Assembly (NCBI GenBank): GCA_004321885.1
Contig: SCQK01000001.1
Span: forward strand, 1 to 55,574
Source: Patescibacteria group bacterium
GTDB taxonomy: Bacteria; Patescibacteriota; Patescibacteriia; Magasanikbacterales; GWA2-37-8
Direction: 5' to 3'
DNA: 55,574 nt
The stretch's first letter is position 1. Every line of letters begins with the position of its first letter. The translations under genes were made by a program, and so were the position numbers. The notes beneath the pieces are model-generated. The model was not told the DNA's origin. It made no database searches and saw only the letters and a program-made list of their open reading frames with translations. Shown in pieces: positions 12,196-48,260 of the stretch.

Positions 12196-12225
12196 AAATC
12201 TCCCCGCGCGGAAAAATTTTTTACT
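12196..12225 (+). terminator. intrinsic terminator-like hairpin (ccgcgcgg) plus T-run after mrcA
   Basis: ctccccgcgcggaaaaatttttt. Confidence 0.4.
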
Positions 12226-31794: not shown

Positions 31795-32709
31795 ATGGGA
31801 CAACTAATAGACGGAAAATTGATTGCCAAGCATATTGAAGCCGAGACCGCAAGGAGAGTGGCTTTGCTCAAGGAGAAAGGAGCGAAACCAAAGCTTGCGG
31901 TTTTTTTAGTCGGCGAAGACAAGCCGTCGCAAAAGTACGTCAAGAAAAAAGGCGAGGCCGCGCAGCGCGTGGGCCTGGATTTTGTTTTACATGAGTTGGC
32001 GGGCGATATTGGCATGGCCGAGTTGGTGGAAAAAATAGAAGACGCCCAGCATAATGAGGAGCTGTCGGGGATAATTATTCAGCTGCCTTTACCCGAACAT
32101 CTGTACACTTCCGAAGTGTTAAACGCCATTCATCCGGAAATTGACGTGGACTGTTTGACCGACGTGAACTTGGGCAAGTTGGTGATGAAGACCAACCACA
32201 TTGTGCCGCCAACACCGGGCGCGGTCATTACTATAATAAAGGATTTGGGCGTGGATTTGGTGGGGAAAAACGTTGTCATTATCGGCGCCGGCGCCTTGGT
32301 AGGCAAGCCGCTTTCCATAATGATGATGAATGAAAGGGCGAGCGTGACCACTTGCAACAGCGCCACGCGCGACACCAAAGAAAAATGCCTGTCCGCCGAT
32401 ATAATCGTGACCGGCGTGGGTAAAAAAGATTTATTGCGCGGTGGTATGGTGAAAGAAGGCGCCATTGTGATAGACACGGGCGTGGCTTTCGTGGATGGGA
32501 AAATGTATGGTGATGTGAACGTGGACGAGGTGATGGAGCGCGCCGCGCACGTGACGCCTACTCCCGGCGGTGTGGGCCCCTTAACCGTGGTGCGCCTTTT
32601 GTGGAATACGGTGCTGTGCGCGGAAAGAAATTTGGAACTTGGGCTGAAACCGCATTCGCGAGAAAGAATAAAATACGAAGGGCATCGGCCGGCGAAGTAT
32701 AAGCTTTAA
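31795..32709 (+). CDS. folD: bifunctional methylene-THF dehydrogenase / methenyl-THF cyclohydrolase
   Basis: IDGKLIAKHI...VGEDKPSQKYVKKK...GxGxxVGKP Rossmann motif. Confidence 0.9.
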   Translation: MGQLIDGKLIAKHIEAETARRVALLKEKGAKPKLAVFLVGEDKPSQKYVKKKGEAAQRVGLDFVLHELAGDIGMAELVEKIEDAQHNEELSGIIIQLPLPEHLYTSEVLNAIHPEIDVDCLTDVNLGKLVMKTNHIVPPTPGAVITIIKDLGVDLVGKNVVIIGAGALVGKPLSIMMMNERASVTTCNSATRDTKEKCLSADIIVTGVGKKDLLRGGMVKEGAIVIDTGVAFVDGKMYGDVNVDEVMERAAHVTPTPGGVGPLTVVRLLWNTVLCAERNLELGLKPHSRERIKYEGHRPAKYKL

Positions 32710-32712
32710 TTA

Positions 32713-32792
32713 CCCCTCCCTAACCCTCCCCTTATAAAGGGGAGGGAAACGTATTGTTCCTCCCCCTTTATAAGGGGGAGGCGAGGAGGGGG
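32713..32792. repeat. tandem pair of family D repeats in the folD-purA intergenic region
   Basis: cccctccctaaccctccccttataaaggggaggg ... cctccccctttataagggggaggcgaggagggggt. Confidence 0.8.
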
Positions 32793-32799
32793 TAAACAT

Positions 32800-34116
32800 A
32801 TGTCACAACTTACTGTCGTGGTTGGCGCCCAGTGGGGCGATGAGGGCAAGGGGAAAATAACCGACTATCTGGCCAAAGACGCCGACTTTGTGGTTCGTTT
32901 CCAAGGAGGCAACAACGCCGGACATACGTTGGTAGTTGGGGATAAAATTTACAAACTACACCTGATTCCATCGGGTGTTTTGTATCCGGGCGCGGTTTCA
33001 ATAATCGGCAACGGCGTGGTGGTGGACCCGCTCACCCTGCTAAAAGAAATCAGCGAGTTTAAAAAAGACGGCCTGGCGCTTAATCTAAAAATCAGCAACC
33101 GTTGTCATGTCATCATGCCATATCACATTGCCTTGGATGGGGCTTTGACCGGACATCAGGGCGGGCTGGCCGCCGGCAGCACCAACCGCGGCATTGCCCC
33201 GGTCTGCGCCGATAAAAGCTATCGTCACGGCATCCGGCTGGGCGATTTGCTGGAACCGGAAATGCTTCGGGAAAAATTAGCCGTGTCATACAATTTCAAC
33301 AAAGCGATTTTGGAAAAAATTTTTAACACGCCTTTCGCCCTGTCGGAAGAAGAAATTTATAATCAGTTTTTGGATTATGGCAAATTATTGGCGCAGTACA
33401 TTGACGATACTGATGTTTTGCTTTATCGCGCCTACAAAGAAGGCAAAAATATCTTGTTTGAAGGGGCGCAGGGTTTGTCCTTGGATCTGGATGTCGGCGT
33501 GTACCCGCATACCACCAGCACCAACACGTTGGCCAGCCATATCGGCGTGGGCACGGGCGTGGGATACGACGGGAATAAACGCGTAATCGGAGTGGCCAAG
33601 GCATACGTGAGCCGCGTGGGCACCAGTCCTTTTATCACCGAACTGCCCGAAGAAGAAGCCAAGGCCTTGCGCGACAAGGGCGGCGAATACGGCACGACCA
33701 CTGGCCGTCCGCGCCGCGTGGGCTGGCTGGATTTGGTGCAACTGCGGCAGGCCGTGCGCTGTAACGGGCTGACTGAATTGGCGCTCATTAAATTGGACGT
33801 GCTAGCCGATTATGAAAAAGTGTTGGTTTGCACCTCGTATGATATAGATGGAAAAGACACCAGAGAAATGCCGGCCAGTTTGTCGCAGTTGCGCCGGGCC
33901 AAACCGGTTTATCAAGAATTCACCGGTTGGCCGGTGATAGATGGAACGGCTTTGAAACAAGGCGGGTTTAAGGGGTTGCCGCTTGAGATAAAAAACTTTG
34001 TGGAGTTTATTGAGAAAGAAACAGAGTGTCCGATCAGTATGTTGTCGTTCGGACCGGAGCGGGAACAAACCATTATTCGTGTCATTGCGAGCGAAGCGAA
34101 GCAATCCCATTCGTAA
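32800..34116 (+). CDS. purA: adenylosuccinate synthetase
   Basis: QWGDEGKGKITD, GGNNAGHT and GTTGRG motifs. The C-terminal 12 aa are encoded by the family C repeat. Confidence 0.95.
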   Translation: MSQLTVVVGAQWGDEGKGKITDYLAKDADFVVRFQGGNNAGHTLVVGDKIYKLHLIPSGVLYPGAVSIIGNGVVVDPLTLLKEISEFKKDGLALNLKISNRCHVIMPYHIALDGALTGHQGGLAAGSTNRGIAPVCADKSYRHGIRLGDLLEPEMLREKLAVSYNFNKAILEKIFNTPFALSEEEIYNQFLDYGKLLAQYIDDTDVLLYRAYKEGKNILFEGAQGLSLDLDVGVYPHTTSTNTLASHIGVGTGVGYDGNKRVIGVAKAYVSRVGTSPFITELPEEEAKALRDKGGEYGTTTGRPRRVGWLDLVQLRQAVRCNGLTELALIKLDVLADYEKVLVCTSYDIDGKDTREMPASLSQLRRAKPVYQEFTGWPVIDGTALKQGGFKGLPLEIKNFVEFIEKETECPISMLSFGPEREQTIIRVIASEAKQSHS

Positions 34117-34163
34117 TTATAGGGATTGCTTCGGTCCCGACTAAGTCGGGGCCTCGCAATGAC
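34081..34163. repeat. composite nested palindromic element (family C arms gtcattgcgag...gaagcaatccc / gggattgcttcg...ctcgcaatgac enclosing a family-B core)
   Basis: Spans the purA stop and the annotated purL start. Confidence 0.8.
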
Positions 34164-36540
34164 AACATCAAATATGATAACGACTGATTTCACGAAAATG
34201 GATGAAGCGCAAATAAAGGAATTTTTGGTTGCCAACAGAATCGCGCTGACGGTGGAAGAAATTTTGAAGATCCAAAACGAAATCTTGAAACGGCCACCCA
34301 CGCTGGCCGAGTGTATTTTGTGGTCCATTCAGGGATCAGAGCACAGCTCGTACAAATCCAGTCGTCCGCACTTGAAACAATTTCACACCAGCGGTCCCAA
34401 CGTAATACTCGGCCCCAGTGAAGACGCCGGCATTGTGGAAATTTGCTGCGACAACGAGGGCCGAAAATACGGCGTAGTGATAAGCCACGAATCGCACAAT
34501 CATCCGTCGCAAGTGGTGCCCTACGAGGGCGCGGCCACGGGCGTAGGCGGCAATGTGCGCGATGTCTGCTGCATGGGCGCGAAAGTAATCGCCTGCGCCG
34601 ACCCTCTGCGCTTCGGACAAATTGACAGTAATAAATCCAAATGGGTGCACGAGGGCGTGGTCTCGGGCATTGCCGGCTATGGCAATCCAATCGGCGTGCC
34701 AAACATCGGCGGCGACTTGTATTACGACGAATCCTACAATGAAAATTGTCTGGTCAACATTGTTACTTTGGGTGTCTTGCGCGAAGACGACATCATACAC
34801 TCGCGCGCGCCGCAAAACGCCGATGGTTATGATTTGGTTTTGGTCGGCAAGCCAACTGACAACAGCGGCTTTGGTGGCGCCAGTTTTGCTTCGTTGGAAT
34901 TAAAAGAAGAAGAAAAAGAACTCAACAAGGGCGCGGTGCAGGAGCCGAACGCTTTTTTGAAGCGCCATTTGCTCAAATCCACCTACGCGCTTTTCAAAAA
35001 AATAAAAGAGGGCGGTTTGATGGATAAAGTGGGTTTCAAAGATTTGGGCGCCGGAGGAATTGCCTGCGCTTCAGTGGAATTGGCCGACGCGGCCGGCTAT
35101 GGCGCCGAAGTGGATATTGATAAAATCCCCAAGGGCATGAACGGACTTAATCCGGCCGTGATTTTGTGCTCCGAGACGCAGGAAAGATTTATGTGGGTGA
35201 GTCATCCGGACGTGACACCGGTTATTTTGGAGCATTATAATGAAATCTTTGATTTGCCCGGCATTGCCGAAGGCGCGCGAGCGGCGGTGGTGGGGAAAAT
35301 TCGCGCTGACGGGCGCTATGTGGTGACAGCCGGCGGAGAAGAAATCGTGAGCGCGCGAGCGCAAGACGTGACACGGGGATTATTGTACAATCGGCCATGG
35401 GAAAAACCCGAGAAAAAATTGAGTGAACCAAACTTGCCCGAGCCAACCGATTACAGTGAAATACTTTTAAAAATTTTGGCCCACGAAAATGTGGCCTCGC
35501 GTTTGCCGGTTTATGAACAGTACGACAAGCAAGTGCAGGGCATCACAATGATTGAATCGGGCCGGGCTGACGCGGGCGTTTTGCAGCCATTTAAGGATGA
35601 CAGTTACCCGGAGGAAATTCGGCAAACCGGCGTCGCTTTGTCAGTGGACCAAAATCCGCGCTACTCCAAGATTGATTCTTATTGGGGGGCGGTAAACGCG
35701 GTAGTGGAAAGCTGCCGCAATGTGGCGGCTGTCGGCGCTGTGCCGTGGGCGTTGACCGATTGTTTGTGCTATGGCAATCCGGAAAAGCCAACCCAGATGT
35801 ATGAATTCGTGGAAGGGGCGCGCGGGGTGGCCGAGGCGGCCAAGGGTTTGCATTTGAAGGACTTCCCGGAAAATCCGGTGCCGATTGTTTCGGGCAATGT
35901 GTCGCTTTACAACGAAAGCAAAGGCAAACCCATCGCTCCCAGCGCCATAATTTCATGCACCGGAAAATTGAGCGACGTGAAGTGCGCGATTGACATGTCG
36001 TTTAAAAAAGCCGACTCAATTATTTTTATGGTCGGCGAGCGCAAAGACGAATGCGGGGGCAGTGTTTATTATAATTTGTTTAAAGAATTGGGAGCCAATG
36101 TACCCAAGCCGGATTTGGCGGAAGCGGAAAAACAAATTTTTGCCGTGACTGACGCGATAGAGGCTGGTCTGGTTTTGGCGGCTCACGATATTTCCGACGG
36201 CGGCTTGGCCGTCTGCTTGGCCGAGATGAGTTTTGGAAATGAGATTGGTTTCGTCTGTCATTCCCGCGAAAGCGGGAATCCAGGGTCGCAACTTCGCCCC
36301 GACAAAGTTCTTTTTTCCGAAACCGGCGGTTTTGTTTTGGAAGTGTCGCCGGAAAACCGCGGCGCAGTGGAAGAAATTTTCGCCAAACGCGGAGTAAAAA
36401 TCTTTGCCATCGGAAAAACCGCCTGTCATTCCGGGCTTGACCCGGGATCCATAACAACGTTAAAGTTTGGAGATGTAATCAACGTACCTTTAAAAGAAGC
36501 AAAAAAAGCGTGGACAGAGGGTTTGTGGGGCAAGCTGTAA
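34126..36540 (+). CDS. purL: phosphoribosylformylglycinamidine synthase subunit PurL
   Basis: PurM-like duplicated domains of FGAM synthase II. The true start is probably MTTSNM at ~34159. Contains an in-frame family A repeat (VCHSRESGNPGSQ). Confidence 0.9.
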   Translation: MLRSRLSRGLAMTTSNMITTDFTKMDEAQIKEFLVANRIALTVEEILKIQNEILKRPPTLAECILWSIQGSEHSSYKSSRPHLKQFHTSGPNVILGPSEDAGIVEICCDNEGRKYGVVISHESHNHPSQVVPYEGAATGVGGNVRDVCCMGAKVIACADPLRFGQIDSNKSKWVHEGVVSGIAGYGNPIGVPNIGGDLYYDESYNENCLVNIVTLGVLREDDIIHSRAPQNADGYDLVLVGKPTDNSGFGGASFASLELKEEEKELNKGAVQEPNAFLKRHLLKSTYALFKKIKEGGLMDKVGFKDLGAGGIACASVELADAAGYGAEVDIDKIPKGMNGLNPAVILCSETQERFMWVSHPDVTPVILEHYNEIFDLPGIAEGARAAVVGKIRADGRYVVTAGGEEIVSARAQDVTRGLLYNRPWEKPEKKLSEPNLPEPTDYSEILLKILAHENVASRLPVYEQYDKQVQGITMIESGRADAGVLQPFKDDSYPEEIRQTGVALSVDQNPRYSKIDSYWGAVNAVVESCRNVAAVGAVPWALTDCLCYGNPEKPTQMYEFVEGARGVAEAAKGLHLKDFPENPVPIVSGNVSLYNESKGKPIAPSAIISCTGKLSDVKCAIDMSFKKADSIIFMVGERKDECGGSVYYNLFKELGANVPKPDLAEAEKQIFAVTDAIEAGLVLAAHDISDGGLAVCLAEMSFGNEIGFVCHSRESGNPGSQLRPDKVLFSETGGFVLEVSPENRGAVEEIFAKRGVKIFAIGKTACHSGLDPGSITTLKFGDVINVPLKEAKKAWTEGLWGKL
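36257..36284. repeat. family A repeat, in-frame in purL
   Basis: gtcattcccgcgaaagcgggaatccagg. Confidence 0.8.
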
Positions 36541-36590
36541 AAAAAGAAGCGGTCCCGCGAGCAAAGGCGCTCGCGGAACCGCCACGGCCC

Positions 36591-36827
36591 TCACTTGGAC
36601 CCCAGACCCGAGACGGACTTGTAGTTCACGCCGAGGTAGAGCGTGCGGTCCGTGCCGAGCGCATTGAACTGCTCGATCTGGGTCCGGATGCTCTGAAGCA
36701 GGGCCTCCCCGACCGTTTTCGGATCGCCTCCGTCCGGGATGCTGGACGTCTCCTTGTTGTCGTCCAGGTTCCTTGCCGCTCTACTGACGGGCGTCTCTCC
36801 ATAGTCTTCCCCATCATCAGGCCTCAT
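36591..36827 (-). CDS. small acidic hypothetical protein (78 aa) in a GC-rich islet inside the pur operon
   Basis: AAGGAGAGG RBS 5 nt before ATG. GC-rich. Flanked by the hairpin gcggtcccgcgagc/gctcgcggaaccgc at 36546-36585. Confidence 0.4.
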   Translation of the reverse strand: MRPDDGEDYGETPVSRAARNLDDNKETSSIPDGGDPKTVGEALLQSIRTQIEQFNALGTDRTLYLGVNYKSVSGLGSK

Positions 36828-36896
36828 CGCGTCCTCTCCTTGTCTTGCCCCCTTAAAATTCTAAATCGTACTCAATTCTACAAAAATTAGCCATTT

Positions 36897-38060
36897 ATGT
36901 CAAACATCTCTTATTCCGATTCCGGCGTCAATTACCAGGCGCTTGATCCGGTGAAAAAATTGGCGCAAATCGCGGCCCGGTCCACGGCTCGTCATTTGTC
37001 GTCGTCCGGTTTCACCGAATCAGAAGACACGCGCGGCGAGTCGGCTTATGTTTGGCAGCAAGGCGACCTCCTGATGGCCTCGGTCATTGAAGGCCTGGGC
37101 ACCAAAAATTTGGTGGCTGACGCCATGCGTAAAATTACCGGCAAGACCTATTACGATATTGTCAGCCACGATACTGTGGCTACGATTATAAACGATCTTG
37201 TTTCGGTGGGCGCCAAGCCGCTTGCTCTCTTCGCTTACTGGGCCGTGGGCAAAAGCGAATGGCTGGCCGACGCGGAAAGGACAAAGGATTTGGCGGACGG
37301 CTGGAAGTCGGCTTGTGATTTAGCCCAAGTTTCCTGGGGAGGCGGCGAAACCCCCGCCTACGCCGGCATCATTAATCCGGAGACCATTGATTTGGCAGGT
37401 TCGGCCGTGGGTATTATTAAAGATAAAAATAATTTGCTCACGGACAAAAAAATACAGGCCGGAGACAGGATAATTTTTTTGAAAAGCAACGGCATAAACG
37501 CCAACGGTTTGTCGCTGGCGCGCGCGATTGCAAATACCCCCTCCTCGCCTCCCCCTTATAAAGGGGGAGGAAATCGTCTCCCTCCCCTTTATAAGGGGAG
37601 GGTTGGGGAGGGGTATGGTGCCAAGCTGCCAAGTGGCGTAATGTACGGAGAAGCATTACTCACAAAAACAAACATCTACGCGAAATTGGTACAGGACTTG
37701 CAGGCGGCAGAAGTAGATATACATTATATTACAAATATCACCGGACATGGATTGCGTAAAGTTATGCGCGGTAGGCCGAATTTTACATACGTAATAGAGA
37801 AAATTTTTGAACCGCTGGAATTATTTATTTTTATGCAAGGTCAGGCCGGGCTTTCGGATTTTGAAATGTATCAGACGTTTAACATGGGGCAGGATTACGC
37901 GATTTACTTATCAGCCGCCGACGTGGCCCGCGCTTTGGAAGTGATAAAACAAAATAATTTTACAGGCATTGAGGCGGGTTTTGTGGAAGCGGGCGAAAAG
38001 CGCGTGATAATCAAACCGAAGAATTTAGAGTATAAAGGAGAGACGTTGGATTTGAGATAA
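36897..38060 (+). CDS. purM: phosphoribosylformylglycinamidine cyclo-ligase (AIR synthetase)
   Basis: SYSDSGVNYQALDP and PurM N- and C-terminal domain patterns. Contains a tandem in-frame family D insertion (SPPPYKGGGNRLPPLYKGRVGEG). Confidence 0.85.
   Translation: MSNISYSDSGVNYQALDPVKKLAQIAARSTARHLSSSGFTESEDTRGESAYVWQQGDLLMASVIEGLGTKNLVADAMRKITGKTYYDIVSHDTVATIINDLVSVGAKPLALFAYWAVGKSEWLADAERTKDLADGWKSACDLAQVSWGGGETPAYAGIINPETIDLAGSAVGIIKDKNNLLTDKKIQAGDRIIFLKSNGINANGLSLARAIANTPSSPPPYKGGGNRLPPLYKGRVGEGYGAKLPSGVMYGEALLTKTNIYAKLVQDLQAAEVDIHYITNITGHGLRKVMRGRPNFTYVIEKIFEPLELFIFMQGQAGLSDFEMYQTFNMGQDYAIYLSAADVARALEVIKQNNFTGIEAGFVEAGEKRVIIKPKNLEYKGETLDLR
37537..37614. repeat. tandem family D repeats, in-frame in purM
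   Basis: cccctcctcgcctcccccttataaagggggagg...cctcccctttataaggggagggttggggaggggt. Confidence 0.8.
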
Positions 38061-38065
38061 ACATT

Positions 38066-39412
38066 ATGAAAGTCGCCATCATACAATTCCCCGGCAGTAA
38101 CTGTGAATCGGAATCCATTTACGCGGTGCGGCGCGCCGGCATGGAGCCGGTGGAATTTTTGTGGAATCAAGAGCACGACGAGCTGAAAAATTTTGACGGC
38201 TATTTCATCGTGGGCGGATTTTCCTACGAAGACCGCTCGCGCTCGGGCATCATCGCCTCGCTTGATCCCCTGCTTACCGCCTTGAAAGCGGAAAACGAAA
38301 AAGGCAAACCGATTCTGGGCGTTTGCAATGGGGCGCAGATTTTGGTGGAGTCGGGCATTGTGCCGGGCCTAGCCGACTATGCCGTGGGCCACCACACCAA
38401 AGATTTTGGTGTGGTGGCAGGTATGGCGCTCGCTGTAAACAAACGAGTGAAAGACGGACGCGTGCTGGGCACCGGATTTTATAATTCCTGGTCCAACGTC
38501 CAACTGTCGGCCCCGAGCGAACGCTCGGCTTTCACGCGCCACATGAAGCCGGGCGAATTTATAAATATTCCCGTGGCGCACGGCGAAGGCCGCTTTACCA
38601 TGCCGGACGAACTCTTGGCCGAATTGATTGTCAAAAACCAAACAGTGTTTCGCTACTGCGATGACAGGGGAGAAATCAGTTCGGAATTTCCGGTAAATCC
38701 GAACGGCTCCATGCATAATTTAGCGGCTGTCTGCAACGCGGCCGGCAACGCCATGGCCATGATGCCCCACCCCGAACGCACGCCGAACGGCCAAGCCATT
38801 TTTACTTCCATGCGCGAGTATGTTGAAAAAGAAAAAACCATAACGATGAAAAACGTTACGGATAATTTCCGGCCAACCGTGATGGAAATATCCGAGTATA
38901 AGCCGGAACCAAATTCTACAGAATTAGTCATCGGTTTAATCATTACAGACAATGAAGCCGGCACGGTAAAAAATACTTTGCGTCGGTTGAATATTGACGC
39001 GGAAATTACGAAATACATTCACTGGGAAATTTCGGCTGACGACCCGGCGACGATTGTCGCTTCGCCGGCTTGCCGCGACGAGCTATTTAACTCCAACAAA
39101 GAAAAGATAGTGCAACTGGGCTCCACAGCCCCGGTCGCCTGCGGCGACCGTGGGACTATGGAGTCAACCAATGCGCTTCAGAATGACAATACGGCTTATC
39201 TGCTCGTGCGCTATCGCGAAGATTTCGTGGGGCAAAGCAAACAGTATGTTTTGGAAAATCGGCTGGGCGTTTCCGGGGTTAAAAAGATAACCAAAGGCAC
39301 GCTCTGGAAAATTTCCGCGCCCAGTGATAGGATTGAGGAAATCGTAAGCAAGGTTATTTCCAGCAGGATTTTATTCAATCAATTTTCACAGGGGTGTTTT
39401 AAATATATATAG
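38066..39412 (+). CDS. purQ: FGAM synthase glutaminase subunit PurQ with a ~210-aa C-terminal extension, possibly tandem PurS-like domains
   Basis: Class I glutamine amidotransferase triad: GVCNGAQIL Cys and the His in PHPER. The extension resembles two ~85-aa PurS-like modules. Confidence 0.8.
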   Translation: MKVAIIQFPGSNCESESIYAVRRAGMEPVEFLWNQEHDELKNFDGYFIVGGFSYEDRSRSGIIASLDPLLTALKAENEKGKPILGVCNGAQILVESGIVPGLADYAVGHHTKDFGVVAGMALAVNKRVKDGRVLGTGFYNSWSNVQLSAPSERSAFTRHMKPGEFINIPVAHGEGRFTMPDELLAELIVKNQTVFRYCDDRGEISSEFPVNPNGSMHNLAAVCNAAGNAMAMMPHPERTPNGQAIFTSMREYVEKEKTITMKNVTDNFRPTVMEISEYKPEPNSTELVIGLIITDNEAGTVKNTLRRLNIDAEITKYIHWEISADDPATIVASPACRDELFNSNKEKIVQLGSTAPVACGDRGTMESTNALQNDNTAYLLVRYREDFVGQSKQYVLENRLGVSGVKKITKGTLWKISAPSDRIEEIVSKVISSRILFNQFSQGCFKYI

Positions 39413-39413
39413 T

Positions 39414-40805
39414 ATGGATTACACTTCCATCATCAGACAAAATCTGAATAATTGTCTGACGCAGACGAATTTAAATATCGGCAAGAAAAAAATTGGCAAG
39501 GTGCGCGATACCTATGAACTCGCCGATAAAATGATTCTAGTCACTACTGACCGACAGAGCGCTTTTGACCGCATTTTGGCTTCCATCCCGTTTAAGGGGC
39601 AAGTGCTCAATCAAACCAGCGCCTGGTGGTTTGAAAAAACCAAACACATTATCCCCAATCATGTTTTGTCTATCCCCGACCCCAACGTGACCATGGCCAA
39701 AAAATGCCAAGTTTTTCCGATTGAGTTTGTGGTGCGCGGGTATATCACCGGCACCACCGACACTTCGGCTTGGGTAAATTATCAAAAAGGGGTGCGTAAT
39801 TTTTGCGGCAACGCTTTACCCGAGGGTCTGAAAAAAAATCAGCAGCTGGCCAAGGCGATTGTCACGCCCACCACCAAGTCCGACGCCCACGACCGTCTGA
39901 TCAGTCCCGAAGAGATTATCGCCGAAGGACTGATGTCGCGTGAAGATTGGAACTTCGCTTCAACCAAGGCCCTGGAACTTTTTGAATTCGGCCAACAAGT
40001 GGCTCGCGAGCACGGCTTGATTTTGGTTGACACCAAATACGAGATGGGTAAAGACGAAAACGGCAATATTATTTTGTTAGACGAGATCCACACGCCCGAT
40101 TCCAGTCGCTATTGGATCGCCGAAACATACGAAGACCGTTTCGCCGCCGGACAAGAACCGGAAAACATAGATAAAGAATTTTTGCGCTTGTGGTTTAAAG
40201 AACACTGCGACCCGTATGGCGACAAAGAACTGCCGCCGGCGCCCGAGGAATTGGTGGTGGAATTATCCCGCCGCTATATCATGCTTTACGAAATGATTAC
40301 TGGCGAAAAATTTGTTTTCCCGGAGGACGCCGACATCAACGAGAGAATGAAAAATAATTTGGCTGTCATCGCGAACTCTCCTCTGAGAATAAACTCCGCA
40401 AAGCAACCCCCCGCAAAAAGGGCGGTGATAATAATGGGTTCGGAAGCGGACGCGGAGTTCACGAAAAAGATTACGATAAAATTGGACGAACTGGGGGTCA
40501 GCCACGAAGAGCATGTCGCGTCGGCGCACAAACAGCCGGCAAAGGTTTTGGAAATTTTAGAGAAAAATAAAAATGAGAAAGTGGTGTACGTGACCATCGC
40601 CGGCCGTTCCAACGCGCTCTCGGGTTTTGTGGCCGCCAATTCCGACGCGCCCACCCTGGCCTGTCCACCCTTTGTCGACAAGCTGGATATGCTCGTGAAC
40701 ATTCACTCTACTTTGCAGATGCCGAGTAACGCGCCAGTTTTAACCGTGCTTGATCCAGGCAACTGCGCCTTGGCCGTTAAAAGAATTTTTGATATATGTC
40801 GCTAA
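39414..40805 (+). CDS. purC: fusion protein: SAICAR synthetase (PurC) plus C-terminal PurE (AIR carboxylase / N5-CAIR mutase) domain
   Basis: PurC N-terminal motif GKVRDTY...VTTDRQSAFD. PurE C-terminal motif AVIIMGSEADAE...VASAHKQP...VTIAGRSNALSGFVAANSDAPTLACPP. Confidence 0.85.
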   Translation: MDYTSIIRQNLNNCLTQTNLNIGKKKIGKVRDTYELADKMILVTTDRQSAFDRILASIPFKGQVLNQTSAWWFEKTKHIIPNHVLSIPDPNVTMAKKCQVFPIEFVVRGYITGTTDTSAWVNYQKGVRNFCGNALPEGLKKNQQLAKAIVTPTTKSDAHDRLISPEEIIAEGLMSREDWNFASTKALELFEFGQQVAREHGLILVDTKYEMGKDENGNIILLDEIHTPDSSRYWIAETYEDRFAAGQEPENIDKEFLRLWFKEHCDPYGDKELPPAPEELVVELSRRYIMLYEMITGEKFVFPEDADINERMKNNLAVIANSPLRINSAKQPPAKRAVIIMGSEADAEFTKKITIKLDELGVSHEEHVASAHKQPAKVLEILEKNKNEKVVYVTIAGRSNALSGFVAANSDAPTLACPPFVDKLDMLVNIHSTLQMPSNAPVLTVLDPGNCALAVKRIFDICR

Positions 40806-42130
40806 CTTCCGTTTCTCCCTTAGACGGACGCTACGAAAGCCAGACAAAAGAACTCTCCCCCTATTTTTCCGAAATGGCGCTGATGAAATATCGCGTCATG
40901 GTTGAAGTTGAGTATTTAATCGCGTTGGGGGCGGAGAAAGAAATTAAGGAAGTCATTCGCTTTTCGGAAAAAGAGCAAAAAAATTTACGCTCGCTTTATA
41001 AGCGCTTTTCTTTGGCCCACGCCGAGCGGGTGAAAGAAATTGAAAATACCACCAGTCATGATGTGAAAGCGGTTGAGTATTTTATTAAGGAGAAATTTCC
41101 CAGTGAATTTATACATTTCGCGCTGACTTCCGAGGACATCAATAATCTTGCCTATTCTTTAATGCTTAAAGACGGATTGGAAAAAGTGATTTATCGCGCC
41201 GTGGAGCAGATTTTGAAAGCGCTTAAAAACTTGGCCAAAGCCAACGCCCGCGTTCCCCTGCTGGCCTTCACCCATGGCCAGCCCGCCACCCCCACCACGC
41301 TCGGCAAGGAAATGGCGGTTTTTTACAAACGGCTTTTACGCGGCCTGAATCACCTCAAATTTATCAAACTGGACGGAAAATTAAACGGGGCCACCGGCAA
41401 TTACGCGGCCGCGGCCTTGGCCTACCCGCAAGTTGACTGGATAAAATTTTCCCAAAAATTCGTGAGCTCGCTGGGCCTGAACCCTAATTTGCTCACCACG
41501 CAGATAGAACCGCACGATTGTTCGGCCGCGGTTTACGACGCCATCGCGCGCCTGAACAATATTATAAAGGACTTGGACCAGGATATATGGCTCTACGTCA
41601 GCCGCGGCATTTTCAAATTGCGAAAAAAAGCCGGCGAGGTCGGCTCTTCCACCATGCCGCACAAAGTGAACCCGATTAATTTTGAAAACAGCGAAGGCAA
41701 TCTGGGTGTGGCTAACGCCATTTTGCGTTTCATGTCCGACAAGCTGGTGGTAAGCCGTCTGCAACGCGACCTCACCGACAGCACGGTGATTCGCAATCAA
41801 GGCGCGGCGCTGGGCTACAGTCTGCTCGCCTATAAAAATACGCTCAAAGGTTTGGAAAAATTGGAAGTGAACAAAAAACAATGCGAGAAAGAGCTGGATG
41901 AGCATTGGGAAGTACTGGCCGAGGCGGTGCAGACGGTTTTGCGCAAGGTGGGATACGAGAAGCCCTATGAAAAATTGAAAGAATTGACCCGTGGAGAAAA
42001 AGTGGATAAAAAAATAATGCGGGCTTTTATAGCGGGACTGGAAATTTCCAATGAAGAAAAAAATAAATTGATGAAATTGACACCCGCAAAGTATGTAGGG
42101 TTGTCGGAGAAATTAGTAAAGTTAATTTAG
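40796..42130 (+). CDS. purB: adenylosuccinate lyase
   Basis: SPLDGRYES... and the fumarate lyase signature GSSTMPHKVNP. Confidence 0.95.
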   Translation: MSLTSVSPLDGRYESQTKELSPYFSEMALMKYRVMVEVEYLIALGAEKEIKEVIRFSEKEQKNLRSLYKRFSLAHAERVKEIENTTSHDVKAVEYFIKEKFPSEFIHFALTSEDINNLAYSLMLKDGLEKVIYRAVEQILKALKNLAKANARVPLLAFTHGQPATPTTLGKEMAVFYKRLLRGLNHLKFIKLDGKLNGATGNYAAAALAYPQVDWIKFSQKFVSSLGLNPNLLTTQIEPHDCSAAVYDAIARLNNIIKDLDQDIWLYVSRGIFKLRKKAGEVGSSTMPHKVNPINFENSEGNLGVANAILRFMSDKLVVSRLQRDLTDSTVIRNQGAALGYSLLAYKNTLKGLEKLEVNKKQCEKELDEHWEVLAEAVQTVLRKVGYEKPYEKLKELTRGEKVDKKIMRAFIAGLEISNEEKNKLMKLTPAKYVGLSEKLVKLI

Positions 42131-42132
42131 TT

Positions 42133-42214
42133 GTCATTGCGAGGAGGCCTGCAGGCCGACGCGGCAATCCCTTACAAGTTTGGGATTGCTTCGGCCTAAA
42201 GGCCTCGCAATGAC
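42133..42214. repeat. family C composite palindromic element filling the purB-purF intergenic region
   Basis: gtcattgcgag-gaggcctgcaggcc...gcaatccc / gggattgcttcggcctaaaggcc-tcgcaatgac. Confidence 0.8.
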
Positions 42215-42222
42215 AAAATTCT

Positions 42223-45072
42223 ATGTGCGGAGTTGTAGGAATTTATTCCAAAAAACCAGTGGCGCAGGAATTGTATGATTCTTTAATCCACTTACAGCAT
42301 CGCGGGCAAGACGCGGCCGGCATTTTGACGTACCAAGAAAAATTTCATTTCAAAAGGGGGCTGGGACTGGCGCGCGATATTTTCCACACGCACGACATGG
42401 AGCGGCTCACCGGCAATATCGGCATCGCGCACACGCGCTACCCCACCACCGGCCGCATTGAAATTGAAGATGCCCAGCCGTTTTGGACCGGCGTGCCTTT
42501 TGGCATGGCCTTGGCGCATAACGGCAATCTGGTAAATTACAACGAGGTCAAGCGTAAGGTTTTTGAAGAACGTCATCGCTATGTCAACTCCACCAGCGAC
42601 GGCGAAGTAATTTTGCACGTGTTGGCCGATGAGTTGGTAAAAGGCATGGCAGAAAATCACGTTGATACTTTTTTTGACCTGCTGTGCGACGCCGTGGCCC
42701 GTCTTTTCAAAGCGACCAGCGGAGCATATTCAGTGGTCAGCATTATCGTGGGCAAGGGCATGCTGGCGTTTCGCGATCCGCATGGCATCCGTCCGCTCAC
42801 GCGTGGCGCGCGCGTCAATCCCGATGGCAGCAAGGACTATATTTTTGCTTCCGAAAACATCATGTTTTATCCGCTTGGCTTTAAGCAAGAAGAGGATGCA
42901 AAACCCGGCGAGGTGATATTTATAGACAACGACGGCAATTTACACAGCAGAGTGGTTGGACGCGAAGCCGCTTTGGGCCAGCGCGAACCCGAATTTTCTC
43001 CTTGCATTTTTGAATACATTTATTTCGCGCGCCCAGACTCTATGATGAATAACGTGAGCGTGTACCGCTCGCGTCTGCGCATGGGACAAAATTTGGCCAA
43101 GGCGTGGAAGACAAAATTTCCCAACGTAATGCCCGACGTCGTCATACCCGTGCCTTTCACTTCCAACACCGCGGCATTGGCCATGGCGCACGAACTCGGC
43201 GTGCGCTACAGCGAAGGACTTTATAAAAACGCCTTCATCGGCCGCACTTTTATCATGCCCAATCAGGAATTGAGGCGAAAGTCAGTGCGCTACAAGCTTA
43301 ATCCGCAGGAAACGGAAATTCGGGACAAAAATGTGATGCTTTTGGACGACAGCATCGTGCGCGGCACGACCAGCCGTGAAATCGTGCAAATGATGCGTGA
43401 GTTTGGAGCCAAGGAAGTATATTTTGTCACCACTTGCCCGCCGGTCAAATTTCCGTGCTTTTACGGAGTGGACATGCCTACGAAATCAGAACTTGTCGCG
43501 TCGGCCCGGACCGAAGAAGAAGTGAGATTATATATCGGCGCTGATATTTTGCTTTATCAAAACATTCCCGACTTGGTGGAAGCAGTCACGCGCGTTCAAA
43601 GCATAGAGCACCCATGTATGGCTTGCCTGAACGGGCACTACGTGACCGGCGACGTGGATGAAAAAAAATTTAAAGAAATAGAAGCGAGTAGAAATAAAGA
43701 TAAGGGGATTAAAAAATCTATGGATATACTTATTATCGGTTCAGGAGCACGCGAGCATGCGATTGCGCGCGCGGTGGTTCGCTCACCGCAAAAACCGCGG
43801 CTGTTTTGTTTTGCTTCAAGCAACAACCCGGGCATACGCGAACTATCGGTCGGTTACGCGGTGGGAAAAATTACCGACCCAACGGCGGTGATAAATTTCG
43901 CCAAAGAGAACGCGATTGATATCGCTATCGTGGGCCCCGAAGCCCCGCTGGCCTCTGGCGTGGCTGACGCCTTGTGGGCGGCAGGCGTGGCTTGTGTTGG
44001 ACCAAAGCAAAAATTGGCGCGGCTGGAAACGAGTAAGGGTTTTACGCGCGATTTACAGGCCGAATTTAAGATTCCGGGCAGTCCGAAATACAAAAAATTC
44101 AGTTCTTTGGAAGGGGCTAAAGAATTTTTATCCGAGCTCGGCGATTTGTACGTGGTAAAAGCGGACGGCCTGATGGGAGGCAAAGGAGTGAAAGTGGCCG
44201 GGGATCATTTGCATACTTATGAAGAAGCGCTGGCCTATTGTCAGGAATTATTGGATAGTTGTCATTCCCGCGAAAGCGGGAATCCAGGTGCGGCCTTTGT
44301 CATCGAAGAAAAGTTAATCGGCCAGGAATTTTCACTGATGAGTTTTTGCGACGGCGAGCATTTGGCTCACACGCCCGCGGTTCAAGATCACAAGCGGGCT
44401 TTTGACGGCGACCAGGGGCCAAACACGGGAGGCATGGGAAGTTATAGCGACGCGGATCATAAATTGCCTTTTTTGACTGATGAAGATATCTGGCAGGCGC
44501 GCGAGATAAATAAAAAAACCGCGGTGGCTTTGAAGGCGAAATTCGGGGAGGGATATGTTGGTGTTTTGTATGGAGGATTTATGGCTACGGCGGACGGAGT
44601 AAAATTGATAGAGTATAATGCCCGTTTGGCCGACCCGGAGGCGATGAACATATTGGCCGTGCTGGAATCGGATTTCGCGGCGCTGTGTCAGGCGATTGTG
44701 GGCGGAAATTTAAGACAAGAGCACGCGCTTTTCGCGAACAAGGCGACGGTTTGTAAATACGCCGTGCCCGAGGGCTACCCGGACAGTCCGGTAAAAAATC
44801 AAAAAATAGACACGAGCGGCGTAGCCGACAAAAATCAATTGTATTTGGCTTCGGTTGACGCGCGAGATGATGGGTTGTACGAACTGGGCTCGCGCGCCAT
44901 CGCGGTGGTGGGCGTGGCCGATACAATTGCCGAGGCGGAAAAAATTGCGGAAGCGGAAGTCAACAATATCAAAGGCCCGCTGTTTCACCGTCAAGACATT
45001 GGAACTCCGGAATTAATTAATAAGAGAATCCAACACATGTCATTCCTGCGAAAGCAGGAATCCAGGATATGA
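42223..45072 (+). CDS. purF: fusion protein: amidophosphoribosyltransferase (PurF) plus phosphoribosylamine-glycine ligase (PurD)
   Basis: N-terminal MCGVVGI nucleophile and PRTase domain to ~aa 480. A continuous frame then runs into the PurD ATP-grasp domain (MDILIIGSGAREHAIA...). Two in-frame family A repeats. Confidence 0.85.
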   Translation: MCGVVGIYSKKPVAQELYDSLIHLQHRGQDAAGILTYQEKFHFKRGLGLARDIFHTHDMERLTGNIGIAHTRYPTTGRIEIEDAQPFWTGVPFGMALAHNGNLVNYNEVKRKVFEERHRYVNSTSDGEVILHVLADELVKGMAENHVDTFFDLLCDAVARLFKATSGAYSVVSIIVGKGMLAFRDPHGIRPLTRGARVNPDGSKDYIFASENIMFYPLGFKQEEDAKPGEVIFIDNDGNLHSRVVGREAALGQREPEFSPCIFEYIYFARPDSMMNNVSVYRSRLRMGQNLAKAWKTKFPNVMPDVVIPVPFTSNTAALAMAHELGVRYSEGLYKNAFIGRTFIMPNQELRRKSVRYKLNPQETEIRDKNVMLLDDSIVRGTTSREIVQMMREFGAKEVYFVTTCPPVKFPCFYGVDMPTKSELVASARTEEEVRLYIGADILLYQNIPDLVEAVTRVQSIEHPCMACLNGHYVTGDVDEKKFKEIEASRNKDKGIKKSMDILIIGSGAREHAIARAVVRSPQKPRLFCFASSNNPGIRELSVGYAVGKITDPTAVINFAKENAIDIAIVGPEAPLASGVADALWAAGVACVGPKQKLARLETSKGFTRDLQAEFKIPGSPKYKKFSSLEGAKEFLSELGDLYVVKADGLMGGKGVKVAGDHLHTYEEALAYCQELLDSCHSRESGNPGAAFVIEEKLIGQEFSLMSFCDGEHLAHTPAVQDHKRAFDGDQGPNTGGMGSYSDADHKLPFLTDEDIWQAREINKKTAVALKAKFGEGYVGVLYGGFMATADGVKLIEYNARLADPEAMNILAVLESDFAALCQAIVGGNLRQEHALFANKATVCKYAVPEGYPDSPVKNQKIDTSGVADKNQLYLASVDARDDGLYELGSRAIAVVGVADTIAEAEKIAEAEVNNIKGPLFHRQDIGTPELINKRIQHMSFLRKQESRI
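44261..44288. repeat. family A repeat, in-frame in the purD portion
   Basis: gtcattcccgcgaaagcgggaatccagg, translating to SCHSRESGNPGA. Confidence 0.8.
45039..45066. repeat. family A variant (cctgcg/cagg) at the purFD 3' end / purN start
   Basis: gtcattcctgcgaaagcaggaatccagg. Confidence 0.75.
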
Positions 45073-45653
45073 TAAAACTCGCCGTCCTCGGCTCTACCCG
45101 CGGCACAGACATGCAGGCGATAGTTGACGCGATTGAGCGAAAGGAGCTGAACGCAAAAATTGAAGTAGTGGTAAGCAATAAGCTGGACGCGTATATCTTG
45201 GAACGCGCGCGCAGGCACGGTTTGGAGGCGGTTTTTGCGGACATGAGAAGAGAAAGTGGAGAAAAAAAAACGCGCGAAGAATTTGACGCCGAGGTTTTAA
45301 AAATTTTAGAGGCAAAGCAAGTTGATTTAGTTTTGCTTATTGGCTATATGCGTATTTTATCGCCTACCTTTGTGCGAAAATACAAGGGCCGAATTTTGAA
45401 CGTGCACCCTTCCTTGCTTCCGGATTTCGCCGGCGGCATGGACATGGATGTGCACGCCGAGGTAATAAAAGCGGGCGTGAAAGAAACCGGTTGCACGATT
45501 CACCTGGTGGACGAGGGCGTGGATACAGGAGAGATTATTTTGCAAAAACGCTGCGCCGTGGAGCCAACCGACACAGCCGACACGCTCAAAGCTAAAGTGC
45601 AAAAACTTGAAGGTGAAGCGTTTGTGGAGGTATTAAGAAATTGGAAATTTTAA
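45069..45653 (+). CDS. purN: phosphoribosylglycinamide formyltransferase
   Basis: ILNVHPSLLP and the rest of the formyltransferase core. Confidence 0.9.
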   Translation: MIKLAVLGSTRGTDMQAIVDAIERKELNAKIEVVVSNKLDAYILERARRHGLEAVFADMRRESGEKKTREEFDAEVLKILEAKQVDLVLLIGYMRILSPTFVRKYKGRILNVHPSLLPDFAGGMDMDVHAEVIKAGVKETGCTIHLVDEGVDTGEIILQKRCAVEPTDTADTLKAKVQKLEGEAFVEVLRNWKF

Positions 45654-45654
45654 T

Positions 45655-47235
45655 ATGCATACAGAAGTCGTTAGAATAAATCGGGCGCTGATTTCGGTGT
45701 CAAATAAAACCGGCATAGCGGAGTTTGCCCGCGAACTCCAAAAATTGGGCGTGGAAATAATTTCCACCGGCGGCACGCACAAATTGCTTTGCGAAAACAA
45801 AATACCGGCCGTGGAAATTTCCCAGTACACCGGCTTTCCGGAAATGATGGACGGCCGCGTGAAAACCCTGCACCCCTTGGTGCACGGTGGCATCTTGGGT
45901 TTGCGGGATAAACACGCCGAAGCCGCAGCCGGCCATAATATTAAATGGATTGATTTGGTGGTTTGCAATTTGTATCCTTTTTTGGAAACAATAAAAAAAC
46001 CCGGCGTAACCGAGGAGGAAGCGATTGAAAACATAGACATCGGCGGGCCCACCATGATTCGCTCGGCCGCCAAAAATATTGGCTGGACGTGCGCGGTGGT
46101 TGACCCCGAGGATTATAGTAAAATTTTGGCTGAAATAAGAGAAAAAAACGGAGTAAGTTTTGACACGCGCAAAGCACTTTCGGCGAAAGCGTACGCGCAC
46201 ACGACGCGCTATGACGCGGTGATTTCCAATTATTTCAAGCCGGAAAAATTTCCCAAAGAACTCTCGCTCGGTTTTGCTAAATATTATGATTTGCGCTACG
46301 GCGAAAATCCGCATCAGCAAGCCGCGGCCTACAAAGACGAGCTCTGCGCCACAGCGAATATTTTTTTAGCGAAAATCTTGCAGGGCAAGCAGTTATCGTA
46401 CAACAATTTCATTGACGCGGACGCGGCCCTGCAGATGGTAAAGGAATTTGAGCCGCCGGCTTGCGTGATTGTGAAGCATAACAATCCCTGCGGAGCGGCC
46501 ATTGCCGAAAACGCGGAAGCGGCTTTCGCCAAAGCGTTTGCCTGCGATTCGTTGTCGGCTTTCGGCGGGGTGGTGGCGCTTAATCGCGAGTGCGACGCGG
46601 CTCTGGCCGAGAAACTCTCCAAAATATTTTTGGAAATCGTGCTCGCGCCCAAGTTCGCGCCTGCGGCCGTGGAAATTTTATCTAAAAAACAAAATCTGCG
46701 CTTGCTGGAATTGGAAAAAATATCAGTGCCGGCCAGCCGGCTGACTTACAAGCTGATTGAGGGTGGGCTCTTGGCGCAAGACAGCAATACAAAAGAAATT
46801 ACCGAAGCGGATTTGAAAGTCGTGACCAAGCGCCGGCCCGAAACAGGCGAAATTCAAGCCATGCTCTTCGCCTGGAAAATATTGAAGCACATGAAATCAA
46901 ACGCCATTTTGATAGCCAAGGCCGACGCCACGGTGGGAATCGGCGTGGGCCAAGTGTCACGCGTGGATTCGGTGGATATTGCCATAAAAAAATCCGGTAT
47001 GGCTGGCTCCATAGTCCCCGACTTAGTCGGGGCCGTGGAGCCGTTCGCCGGCTGCGTGCTGGCCTCGGACGCCTTTTTCCCCTTCCGCGACAGCATAGAC
47101 AAAATCGCGGCCGCCGCCGGCGTCAAAGCCATTGTCCAGCCCGGGGGTTCCATCAAAGACCAGGAAGTCATCGCGGCCTGCGACGAACACGGCATCGCCA
47201 TGGTCTTTACCGGCCATCGCTGTTTCGCGCATTGA
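45655..47235 (+). CDS. purH: bifunctional AICAR transformylase / IMP cyclohydrolase
   Basis: MGS-like N-terminal region (ALISVSNKTG) and the AICARFT domain. Contains an in-frame family B repeat. Confidence 0.95.
   Translation: MHTEVVRINRALISVSNKTGIAEFARELQKLGVEIISTGGTHKLLCENKIPAVEISQYTGFPEMMDGRVKTLHPLVHGGILGLRDKHAEAAAGHNIKWIDLVVCNLYPFLETIKKPGVTEEEAIENIDIGGPTMIRSAAKNIGWTCAVVDPEDYSKILAEIREKNGVSFDTRKALSAKAYAHTTRYDAVISNYFKPEKFPKELSLGFAKYYDLRYGENPHQQAAAYKDELCATANIFLAKILQGKQLSYNNFIDADAALQMVKEFEPPACVIVKHNNPCGAAIAENAEAAFAKAFACDSLSAFGGVVALNRECDAALAEKLSKIFLEIVLAPKFAPAAVEILSKKQNLRLLELEKISVPASRLTYKLIEGGLLAQDSNTKEITEADLKVVTKRRPETGEIQAMLFAWKILKHMKSNAILIAKADATVGIGVGQVSRVDSVDIAIKKSGMAGSIVPDLVGAVEPFAGCVLASDAFFPFRDSIDKIAAAAGVKAIVQPGGSIKDQEVIAACDEHGIAMVFTGHRCFAH
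47007..47044. repeat. family B 38-bp palindrome, in-frame in purH
   Basis: ggctccatagtccccgacttagtcggggccgtggagcc, translating to GSIVPDLVGAVEP. Confidence 0.8.
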
Positions 47236-47246
47236 AGTGATTTGAG

Positions 47247-48260
47247 TTGAAGATTATGCTTATCTACATCTACGGCGAGGATACGTTTCGCAGCCGGCAG
47301 TATTTGCGCCAAATGGTGGAACAATTCAAAAAACAGCGCGACCCCCAGGGCTATAACGTGCTTTTTTTGGACGGGAAAAAAGAAGAAAGCGGTAAATTGC
47401 TGGGCGAAATGCGCGCCGCGCCTTTTTTGGCCGAAAAGCGCCTGGTGGCCATAGAAAATTTGCTGGCCAGTTCGGACAAGGAAACGTTGGCGCGGATTTT
47501 GGAAGCGATAAAAGAGCCTGCCAAAGGCGGGTCGGTCAATAATATCATTATTTTTTGGCAGGGCGAGCCGCTCTCAAAAATAAAAGAAGTGAAAGAATTG
47601 CACGCGCTTTTAGCCAAAGAAAAATACGCCCAGGAGTTCGCCCCGCTCACCGGCGCGAAATTGGAGCAGTGGGCCGGCAAGGAAATTGAAAAACGAGGCG
47701 CTAAAATAGACAGGCGCGCCCTGTTTTTTTTGTGCGACAACGCGGGCAAGGACATGTGGTATCTGAATTCATTGATGGACCAGTTGGCGGCGTATGTTAC
47801 CCCTCCCCGACCCCCCCCTTATCAAGGGGAGGGGGTGCGCGAGATCGCGCTGGCCGACGTGCAGTTGTTTTTGGAGGAAAAAATTGATGACAATGTTTTT
47901 GCCATGACCGACGCCATTGTTTCGGGCAACCGCAAGCAAGCGTTTAGACTGTTAAATGAACAGCGCCGGTTGGGCGAAGAAGAATTGCGCCTGTTTGGCC
48001 TCATTTGCTGGCAATTTCGCCTTTTGTTGCAAATGCGCGACCTCTACGAGCGTGAAGACAACCTGCCAAGCGACGTTATCGCCAAAAAATTGGGCATTCA
48101 CCCTTATGTGGCCAAAAAAAGCATGGCCATTGTGCGCCGCTATCCCCTGGTCCAGCTTAAAGCGCTTCACGCCAGGCTTTTGGACATTGACCGTAAAACA
48201 AAAACCGGATTTGGCGATACGGCCTTGCTTGTTGATTTGTTTGTGGGGCGGGGGGCTTAG
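47247..48260 (+). CDS. holA: DNA polymerase III delta subunit
   Basis: Delta-subunit pattern YGEDTF...FLAEKRLVAIENL and a C-terminal helical domain. Contains an in-frame family D repeat. Confidence 0.75.
   Translation: MKIMLIYIYGEDTFRSRQYLRQMVEQFKKQRDPQGYNVLFLDGKKEESGKLLGEMRAAPFLAEKRLVAIENLLASSDKETLARILEAIKEPAKGGSVNNIIIFWQGEPLSKIKEVKELHALLAKEKYAQEFAPLTGAKLEQWAGKEIEKRGAKIDRRALFFLCDNAGKDMWYLNSLMDQLAAYVTPPRPPPYQGEGVREIALADVQLFLEEKIDDNVFAMTDAIVSGNRKQAFRLLNEQRRLGEEELRLFGLICWQFRLLLQMRDLYEREDNLPSDVIAKKLGIHPYVAKKSMAIVRRYPLVQLKALHARLLDIDRKTKTGFGDTALLVDLFVGRGA
47800..47837. repeat. family D repeat, in-frame in holA
   Basis: cccctccccgacccccccttatcaaggggagggggtg, translating to PPRPPPYQGEGV. Confidence 0.8.

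Follow-up and report, generated by a model that had tools for sequence, protein, structure and literature searches.

The closest described counterpart of the gene examined here is PAICS, the purine enzyme of animals in which a phosphoribosylaminoimidazole-succinocarboxamide (SAICAR) synthetase domain (PurC) at the N terminus is followed by a 5-aminoimidazole ribonucleotide (AIR) carboxylase domain (PurE) at the C terminus (PMC8988938, Figure 1). The PurC-PurE fusion and the direct AIR carboxylase route have been regarded as animal features, the enzymes being separate in "lower organisms" (PMC8988938, PMC10912719). For PAICS, channelling of CAIR (4-carboxy-5-aminoimidazole ribonucleotide) and the octamer have been studied (PMC8988938, PMC9376930), as have the roles of His303 and K304 of the human enzyme (PMC9376930, PMC10484210, PMC8988938) and the effect of a K304A exchange (PMC8988938). 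The two classes of PurE differ by an Arg-to-Lys replacement (PMC10484210), and a passage of PMC9376930 cites the PurE of Treponema denticola as a characterised bacterial class II AIR carboxylase. The PurE protomer consists of a core and a C-terminal helix that projects from it, and the octamer is conserved (PMC10484210). Here, we describe a purC-purE fusion located at positions 39414..40805 of a 55,574-nucleotide stretch of DNA (the window; contig SCQK01000001.1 of assembly GCA_004321885.1, Patescibacteria group bacterium), which combines both domains in the order found in PAICS with a PurE that carries class II signatures and lacks the C-terminal helix.

The fusion open reading frame and the class of its PurE domain

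The fusion is encoded on the plus strand by a complete open reading frame (ORF; 39414..40805) of 463 codons plus stop, with an ATG start located 1 nt past the purQ stop codon, a TAA stop, and no internal stop codons. Its product comprises three parts, i.e., a PurC domain (aa 1 to 316; 39414..40361), a linker of approximately 20 residues (aa 317 to 336; 40362..40421), and a PurE domain (aa 337 to 463; 40422..40802). The single ORF with an N-terminal PurC and a C-terminal PurE proposed by the first-pass annotation was thus borne out: the two parts are not separated by a stop codon, and Pfam assigns SAICAR_synt (PF01259) to residues 27 to 270 (E 1.7e-70) and AIRC/PurE (PF00731) to residues 338 to 459 (E 1.6e-30), so that the C-terminal region does align to PurE. 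The AlphaFold2 (AF2) monomer model, with a mean predicted local distance difference test (pLDDT) value of 85.5, features two confident domains connected by a disordered segment (pLDDT below 50 at aa 322 to 332). Comparison with unfused relatives places the linker where these have the purC stop codon, an intergenic spacer, and the purE start: their PurC ends with "...INERLKNNLKNYL*" and their PurE begins with "MK.VIIMGS", whereas the window protein reads "...INERMKNNL-AVIANSPLRINSAKQPPAKR-AVIIMGS" across the junction. Run SRR8426592, assembled independently in Logan (L090), matches window positions 39941-42160 at 100% identity (2,220 nt), a stretch that extends from upstream of the linker through PurE to beyond the stop codon of the fusion, and approximately 20 homologues from other metagenomes are fused in the same way, with linkers of differing length. 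The intact ORF, the identical independent assembly, and these homologues confirm that the fusion is genuine and that its ORF has arisen neither by chance nor through a frameshift error. A protein identical to the full-length fusion was not found in the protein collection searched.

The PurC half belongs to the long yeast/mycobacterial type. It exceeds the cutoff of the NCBIfam purC equivalog NF009251/PRK12607 (441.5 bits, cutoff 371), with residues 11 to 317 matching profile positions 4 to 310 of 315, and its best matches in the PDB are Mycobacterium abscessus PurC and yeast Ade1 (E ~1e-41; TM score 0.84, root mean square deviation [rmsd] 2.6 to 2.8 Å). In a phmmer comparison, it gave no alignment to the N-terminal domain of PAICS.

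The PurE half possesses the PurE/AIRC fold, as indicated by the PF00731 match and by the superposition of the AF2 model on T. denticola PurE (PDB 3rg8; rmsd 1.6 Å over 129 columns of 155 to 159 residues in Foldseek). For class assignment, it was aligned with class I references (1qcz, confirmed to be the E. coli protein, and 2ywx of Methanocaldococcus jannaschii) and class II references (3rg8, 4ja0, and 2h31), which differ from one another at four features: SAHR versus SAHK, AG(G/L)AAHLPG versus AGRSN(G/A)L, (G/A)VP versus CPP, and a deletion of four residues ahead of the last core helix in class II. At all four, the window protein is of the class II type. Specifically, the SAHK motif (aa 370 to 373; 40521..40532) pairs the catalytic His with Lys, as in class II, in place of the class I Arg, the 70s loop reads AGRSNALSG (aa 396 to 404; 40599..40625) instead of AGGAAHLPG, CPP (aa 417 to 419; 40662..40670) stands at the position of GVP or AVP, and the deletion is present. 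In 20 fused homologues, SAHK and CPP are invariant and AGRSNALSG is invariant or nearly so; the GS..D and QMP motifs of PurE are likewise invariant. Against all PDB sequences, the PurE domain matched T. denticola 3rg8 best (E 5.9e-21), followed by Bombyx and human PAICS, with class I proteins ranking lower. TIGR01162, the equivalog model of the class I N5-carboxyaminoimidazole ribonucleotide (N5-CAIR) mutase, scored 100.5, below its cutoff of 149.6.

The fusion lies within a purine gene cluster (31795..47235, plus strand) with the order folD-purA-purL-(gap)-purM-purQ-purC/E-purB-purF/D-purN-purH, which contains all other pathway steps besides purK. The first-pass annotation had noted the missing purK, correctly so: Pfam scans of all window ORFs of at least 150 aa found no PurK-type ATP-grasp domain, and tblastn of the window with E. 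coli PurK found no purK (best E 4.8). The probe, validated against PDB 1b6s (816 bits, full length), does pick up purK in L012 and L015, two related loci in which it directly follows purC and a short purE is lacking; near a short purE, purK was found at 0 of approximately 40 loci within 1.36 Mb of related loci. Taken together, the class II motifs, the TIGR01162 score below cutoff, and the purK-less but otherwise complete operon support the suggestion of the first-pass annotation of a class II AIR carboxylase in the PurE domain, an activity predicted from sequence; its proposed check of the class-specific signature residues gave class II throughout. Assignment as a class I mutase was rejected on the basis of the motifs and the TIGR01162 score, and a LarB-like function was rejected as well, the match being nonsignificant (E 0.0096; 15.6 bits, cutoff 175) and the operon context contrary to it.

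The short PurE and the origin of the fusion

The PF00731 match of the window PurE covers positions 3 to 127 of the 148 profile positions, and the protein ends two to three residues past the last core helix (KRIFDICR; aa 448 to 461 in the AF2 model), a point beyond which about 29 residues follow in T. denticola PurE, about 32 in PAICS, and about 30 in E. coli PurE. There is no space for a further helix at the end of the fusion, since the start of purB (adenylosuccinate lyase; 40796..42130, plus strand) overlaps its last 10 nt, TAA stop included (ATATGTCGCTAA); a missing helix encoded downstream is thereby rendered impossible. The same end point is found in thousands of stand-alone PurEs of approximately 128 aa, which are 75 to 81% identical to the window domain and come mostly from marine Marinimicrobia, being abundant in Opitutia and Patescibacteria, too; Peregrinibacteria-type loci encode a 149-aa PurE that has retained the helix. 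As the stand-alone proteins end identically, the truncation was not caused by the fusion. The motifs are kept across phyla in thousands of proteins, indicating strong purifying selection, and this conservation argues that the short PurE is functional. Many of the 128-aa proteins with class II motifs (P0121-P0240, e.g., P0162 and P0227) are publicly named "5-(carboxyamino)imidazole ribonucleotide mutase", other short PurE records are named "AIR carboxylase family protein", and annotation is thus inconsistent; the class I naming of proteins with class II motifs is probably a systematic misannotation.

The nearest relatives of the fusion protein are found in metagenome-assembled genomes (MAGs) of Magasanikbacteria and other Patescibacteria, which makes such an organism the probable source of the window; the best single match, L001, carries a Gammaproteobacteria label in an automated MAG record. 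Most related loci encode purC (approximately 320 to 330 aa) followed by a separate purE (127 to 134 aa), often with a 4-nt overlap. These separate pairs include the closest loci L006 (78% identity in both halves), L002, and L010, and the two genes are separate in the Marinimicrobia and Opitutia loci, too. In a first neighbour-joining tree of concatenated PurC and PurE sequences, the window protein and the fused P0001 were sister to the unfused L006 and L002 with 73% bootstrap support; in a broader tree, the window protein still grouped with L002 and L006 at a node support of 30%. Fused and unfused forms interleave in the trees. From the unfused closest relatives, the unique linker, and this interleaving, we conclude that adjacent purC and short purE genes appear to have merged locally and that the fused state is evolutionarily labile. 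The merger would have occurred in a Magasanikbacteria-like lineage of the Patescibacteria, joining purC to a class II purE that was already short (approximately 128 aa); the stop codon of purC and the start of purE would have been lost, and the spacer would have turned into a flexible linker of approximately 20 aa. Descent from animal PAICS was rejected because of the PurC subtype and the unfused nearest relatives.

Proposed function and alternative explanations

The function that we consider quite probable is a two-step conversion, in which the PurE domain would form CAIR from AIR and CO2 with neither ATP nor PurK, and the PurC domain would then convert CAIR, aspartate, and ATP to SAICAR. [quoted passage not shown] The fusion would fix a 1:1 stoichiometry of PurC and PurE and, by analogy with what has been proposed for PAICS, may aid the hand-over of the labile CAIR between the active sites, possibly by channelling. 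Bypassing PurK saves ATP but demands sufficient CO2 (PMC3261824), and a PurK-free route would presumably suit CO2-rich subsurface habitats.

Several points weigh against this picture of a working class II enzyme that arose by local merger. The canonical C-terminal α-helix, which packs against an adjacent subunit of the octamer and is present in 38 of the 38 distinct solved PurE or PAICS sequences matched (157 to 183 aa in length; PAICS, 425 aa), is absent from the window PurE, and with approximately 28 residues missing, assembly or activity could differ from those of known enzymes; in the literature searched, we found no characterised PurE of the short, helix-less kind. The purK searches covered 55.6 kb of the source genome, and a purK may lie elsewhere in it. 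In addition, the tree backbones are weak, with most deep nodes below 50%, and would allow fission as well as fusion and differing numbers of events; for this reason, no number of fusion events is claimed.

With respect to function, the absent helix, together with a PF00731 match that stops well before the end of the profile, would be expected if the PurE domain were dead or impaired and had no role beyond oligomerisation or regulation, CAIR being formed nonenzymatically or by another enzyme. We regard this as unlikely, given that the motifs for catalysis and substrate binding (GS..D, SAHK, AGRSNALSG, CPP, and QMP) are invariant in the fused homologues, that 75 to 81% identity is maintained across thousands of stand-alone proteins in several phyla, that the conserved operon contains no second PurE, and that substrate contacts in PurE come chiefly from the core of one chain (PMC10484210). 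Less probable still is a class I N5-CAIR mutase served by a PurK from another part of the genome. This would agree with the public naming of many of the near-identical stand-alone proteins and with the fact that the window is only part of a genome, but it is contradicted by the class II state of every discriminating feature, by the TIGR01162 score, by T. denticola PurE as the best match, and by the lack of purK beside any short purE in the related loci, where the same probe did detect the purK genes of L012 and L015.

Concerning origin, the fusion might have been inherited or transferred in a prefused form, either from an animal-type PAICS or from a (PurN-)PurC-PurE protein of the giant-virus or eukaryote type. 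The identical domain order of PAICS, the many PurC-PurE(short) fusions in other lineages, including giant-virus MAGs, and the unresolved tree backbone could all be cited in favour of such a history. It is nevertheless highly improbable: the phmmer comparison misses the PAICS PurC half while bacterial and yeast long-type PurC proteins match with E ~1e-41, identity to the other fused families does not exceed about 55% whereas the unfused neighbours reach 78% in both domains and have the whole operon in common, the linkers are nonhomologous, and the window protein and P0001 are placed next to the unfused L006 and L002 in the first tree (73% support; 30% for the grouping of the window protein with L002 and L006 in the broader tree). 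Hardly worth entertaining is an assembly or sequencing artefact uniting two genes; the relatives do mostly have two genes, but the junction differs from theirs by an in-frame linker of approximately 60 nt and not by one base, an independent assembler yielded the identical sequence, and the fusion point recurs in some 20 further MAG proteins. Junction comparison and assembly L090 led us to discard it.

Beyond the single protein, we tentatively put forward a joint reading, although we would not call it probable: the short class II PurE may represent a previously undescribed subclass of AIR carboxylase, occurring alone, fused to PurC, or fused to PurN-PurC, perhaps assembling unlike the canonical strapped octamer, and serving a PurK-free pathway in uncultivated lineages by way of a mobile, fusion-prone operon. 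If this were true, Marinimicrobia, Opitutia, Patescibacteria, and giant viruses would gain an animal-like, CO2-dependent 10-step purine pathway, and a compact purine operon would be moving between phyla and repeatedly collapsing into multienzyme fusions.

Gene neighbourhood, distribution, and comparison with known systems

The purK-less operon is conserved in the same gene order in loci of Patescibacteria and Marinimicrobia, at 55 to 78% amino acid identity. This sharing of a whole operon by MAGs of both phyla (e.g., L016, L017, and L021) suggests that the entire purine operon has passed between phyla. Directly upstream of the fusion, purQ (38066..39412, plus strand) carries a C-terminal extension of approximately 200 aa, which is conserved in all syntenic loci of the two phyla and shows a weak PurS match (E 0.0019); a search of PDB sequences with the extension was empty. 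As a separate purS gene was not found, the extension may be a divergent fused PurS, possibly in tandem. Further downstream, purF and purD form a single ORF of 949 aa (42223-45072); they are fused in L001, L002, and L010 as well, and separate in L003, L006, L008, L009, L016, L017, L021, and L024. A Magasanikbacteria MAG encodes a 908-aa protein combining PurQ, its extension, PurC, and a short PurE (L003, 8696-11422), and PurC-PurQ fusions exist as well; together with the purF-purD fusion, these cases mark a lineage prone to gene mergers. The gap between purL and purM (36541-36896; 356 nt) contains a 78-aa ORF on the minus strand (36591-36827) with a strong promoter-like site on the same strand (36903-36875; 11/12 matches) and a terminator-like 16-bp hairpin (36583-36548), and may hold a small antisense-oriented gene dividing the cluster into two transcription units. 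Next to the purine cluster, holA comes after purH.

Small palindromic repeat elements sit in frame within housekeeping genes of the window. One of these (TGTCATTCCCGCGAAAGCGGGAATCCAGG; peptide CHSRESGNPG) occurs in purL (36256-36284) and twice in purF-purD (44260-44288 and 45038-45066). A second element of approximately 85 nt (CCCCTTATAAAGGGG type) is found in the folD-purA gap (32710-32795), in purM (37534-37616), where it forms a 27-aa insertion, and in holA (47797-47845), and a third hairpin occurs at the 5′ end of purL (34132-34154) and in purH (47013-47035). These repeats presumably resemble the palindromic elements of Rickettsia. Elsewhere in the window, dnaN and dnaA adjoin each other (12221-14953), so that this neighbourhood is likely the replication-origin region; an AbiEii/AbiEi-like toxin-antitoxin pair (17713-19607) and a membrane H+-pyrophosphatase (24110-26095) are also present.

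The distribution of the architecture was assessed by searching 1.84 billion cluster representatives exhaustively with HMMER. Among the best 150 representatives, from which the architecture counts were taken, 71 contained both domains, 65 in the order PurC-PurE and 6 in the order PurE-PurC; a short PurE end was present in 53 of the 65, and 27 of these 53 had an additional N-terminal PurN. Most of these fusions carry SAHK and GRSN. Clustering at 90% leaves more than 120 PurN-PurC-PurE proteins; entries labelled "Marseillevirus LCMAC202" or "viral metagenome" are among them, as are proteins encoded on giant-virus MAG contigs of IMG/VR (L084-L089). Neighbours of the trifunctional PurN-PurC-PurE(short) genes on giant-virus or unassigned contigs include PurD-PurM, PurH, PurB, PurF, a large PurL, IMPDH, GMP synthase, and RING-finger genes; for instance, L081 (2688-4598) has PurN-PurC-PurE beside a PurD-PurM fusion, and L082 (8001-9305) has PurC-PurE beside a RING-finger gene and a large PurL. 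These contigs apparently encode a near-complete, fused de novo purine pathway. An IMG/VR scan with the window protein gave no match, a search of the BFVD viral structures gave only weak and irrelevant ones, and the literature searched yielded nothing specific on prokaryotic PurC-PurE fusions, giant-virus purine genes, or purine synthesis in Patescibacteria, presenting the fusion as eukaryotic or mammalian. Given the many fusions among the cluster representatives, the architecture is, as far as sequence data can tell, common in metagenomes, and the fusion itself an ordinary merger of operon neighbours.

The more interesting lead is not the fusion but the family of short class II PurEs and its spread, giant viruses included. 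The gene described here draws attention to a large family whose annotation is inconsistent, many entries being called N5-CAIR mutase. This affects pathway reconstruction, i.e., the ATP cost and CO2 dependence assigned to purine synthesis in Patescibacteria and in marine bacteria of high abundance, and also the view of PurE/PurK as a drug target specific to microbes. The fusion protein itself offers a minimal natural system for asking whether CAIR channelling needs the PAICS octamer, and a PAICS-like architecture would have arisen independently in bacteria, from a PurK-free operon.

In the first-pass annotation, the domain order was taken to be the reverse of that of eukaryotic PAICS, for which PurE-PurC was given. 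This is wrong: animal PAICS is arranged PurC(N)-PurE(C), as in the window. In PDB entries 2h31 and 4ja0, the PurE domain occupies residues ~262 to 393 of 425, the Foldseek alignment between human PAICS (6yb8) and the AF2 model is co-linear and extends over 456 columns (E 3.4e-28), and Figure 1 of PMC8988938 depicts the same order. The order PurE-PurC is found in some eukaryotic proteins that are not PAICS, namely in Galdieria (P0084 and P0100) and Blastocystis (P0102), and also in P0055; in these, a full-length PurE with class II motifs precedes a long-type PurC, and P0100 has extra C-terminal sequence for which a DHHC-type domain (PF01529) is listed. A gene order of purE then purC was also observed in DPANN-labelled archaeal MAGs (L049, 9986-11744; L064, 7203-9020; L071, 9995-11748), where a PurE-domain protein of 261 to 268 aa, about twice the normal length and in L064 with two matched stretches, is encoded directly upstream of purC.

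PAICS (human 2h31/6yb8 and Bombyx 4ja0) shares with the window protein the same two activities, predicted in the latter case, the domain order, and a class II PurE with SAHK, AGRSN.L, and CPP, and it is the top Foldseek match. Unlike PAICS, however, the window protein has a PurC of the long type (approximately 316 aa) and a PurE without the C-terminal helix of approximately 30 aa; the linkers are unrelated, and the fusion would stem from a merger of neighbouring operon genes, and the two proteins do not share common descent in both halves. In view of the different PurC subtype and the unfused nearest relatives, the resemblance is best described as convergent and the fusion as independent of animal PAICS. 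The Galdieria and Blastocystis fusions share the long-type PurC (63 to 65% identical) and the class II motifs, but have the opposite order and a full-length PurE whose C-terminal helix serves as the connector. The PurN-PurC-PurE and PurC-PurE(short) fusions of metagenomes and giant viruses likewise have PurC followed by a short PurE, mostly with SAHK and GRSN; they differ in being only 40 to 55% identical, in the N-terminal PurN that many of them carry, and in their genomic contexts, and they form a separate, weakly supported tree cluster.

For the PurE half alone, the class I enzyme of E. coli (1qcz) has the fold and the catalytic His in common with the window domain, but is distinguished by SAHR, AGGAAHLPG, GVP, the absence of the deletion, and the need for PurK, of which none was found at the window locus. 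T. denticola PurE (3rg8/3rgg) is considerably closer, with 38 to 39% identity, an identical ITIAGRSNALSGFV, and SAHK and CPP in common; its 159 residues form a separate protein that includes the helix, whereas the window domain is fused to PurC and stops at the equivalent of residue ~130. The stand-alone short PurEs of Marinimicrobia, Opitutia, and Patescibacteria (127 to 134 aa) have the same truncated end, the class II motifs, and the position after purC; they are separate polypeptides and constitute the immediate family of the PurE half.

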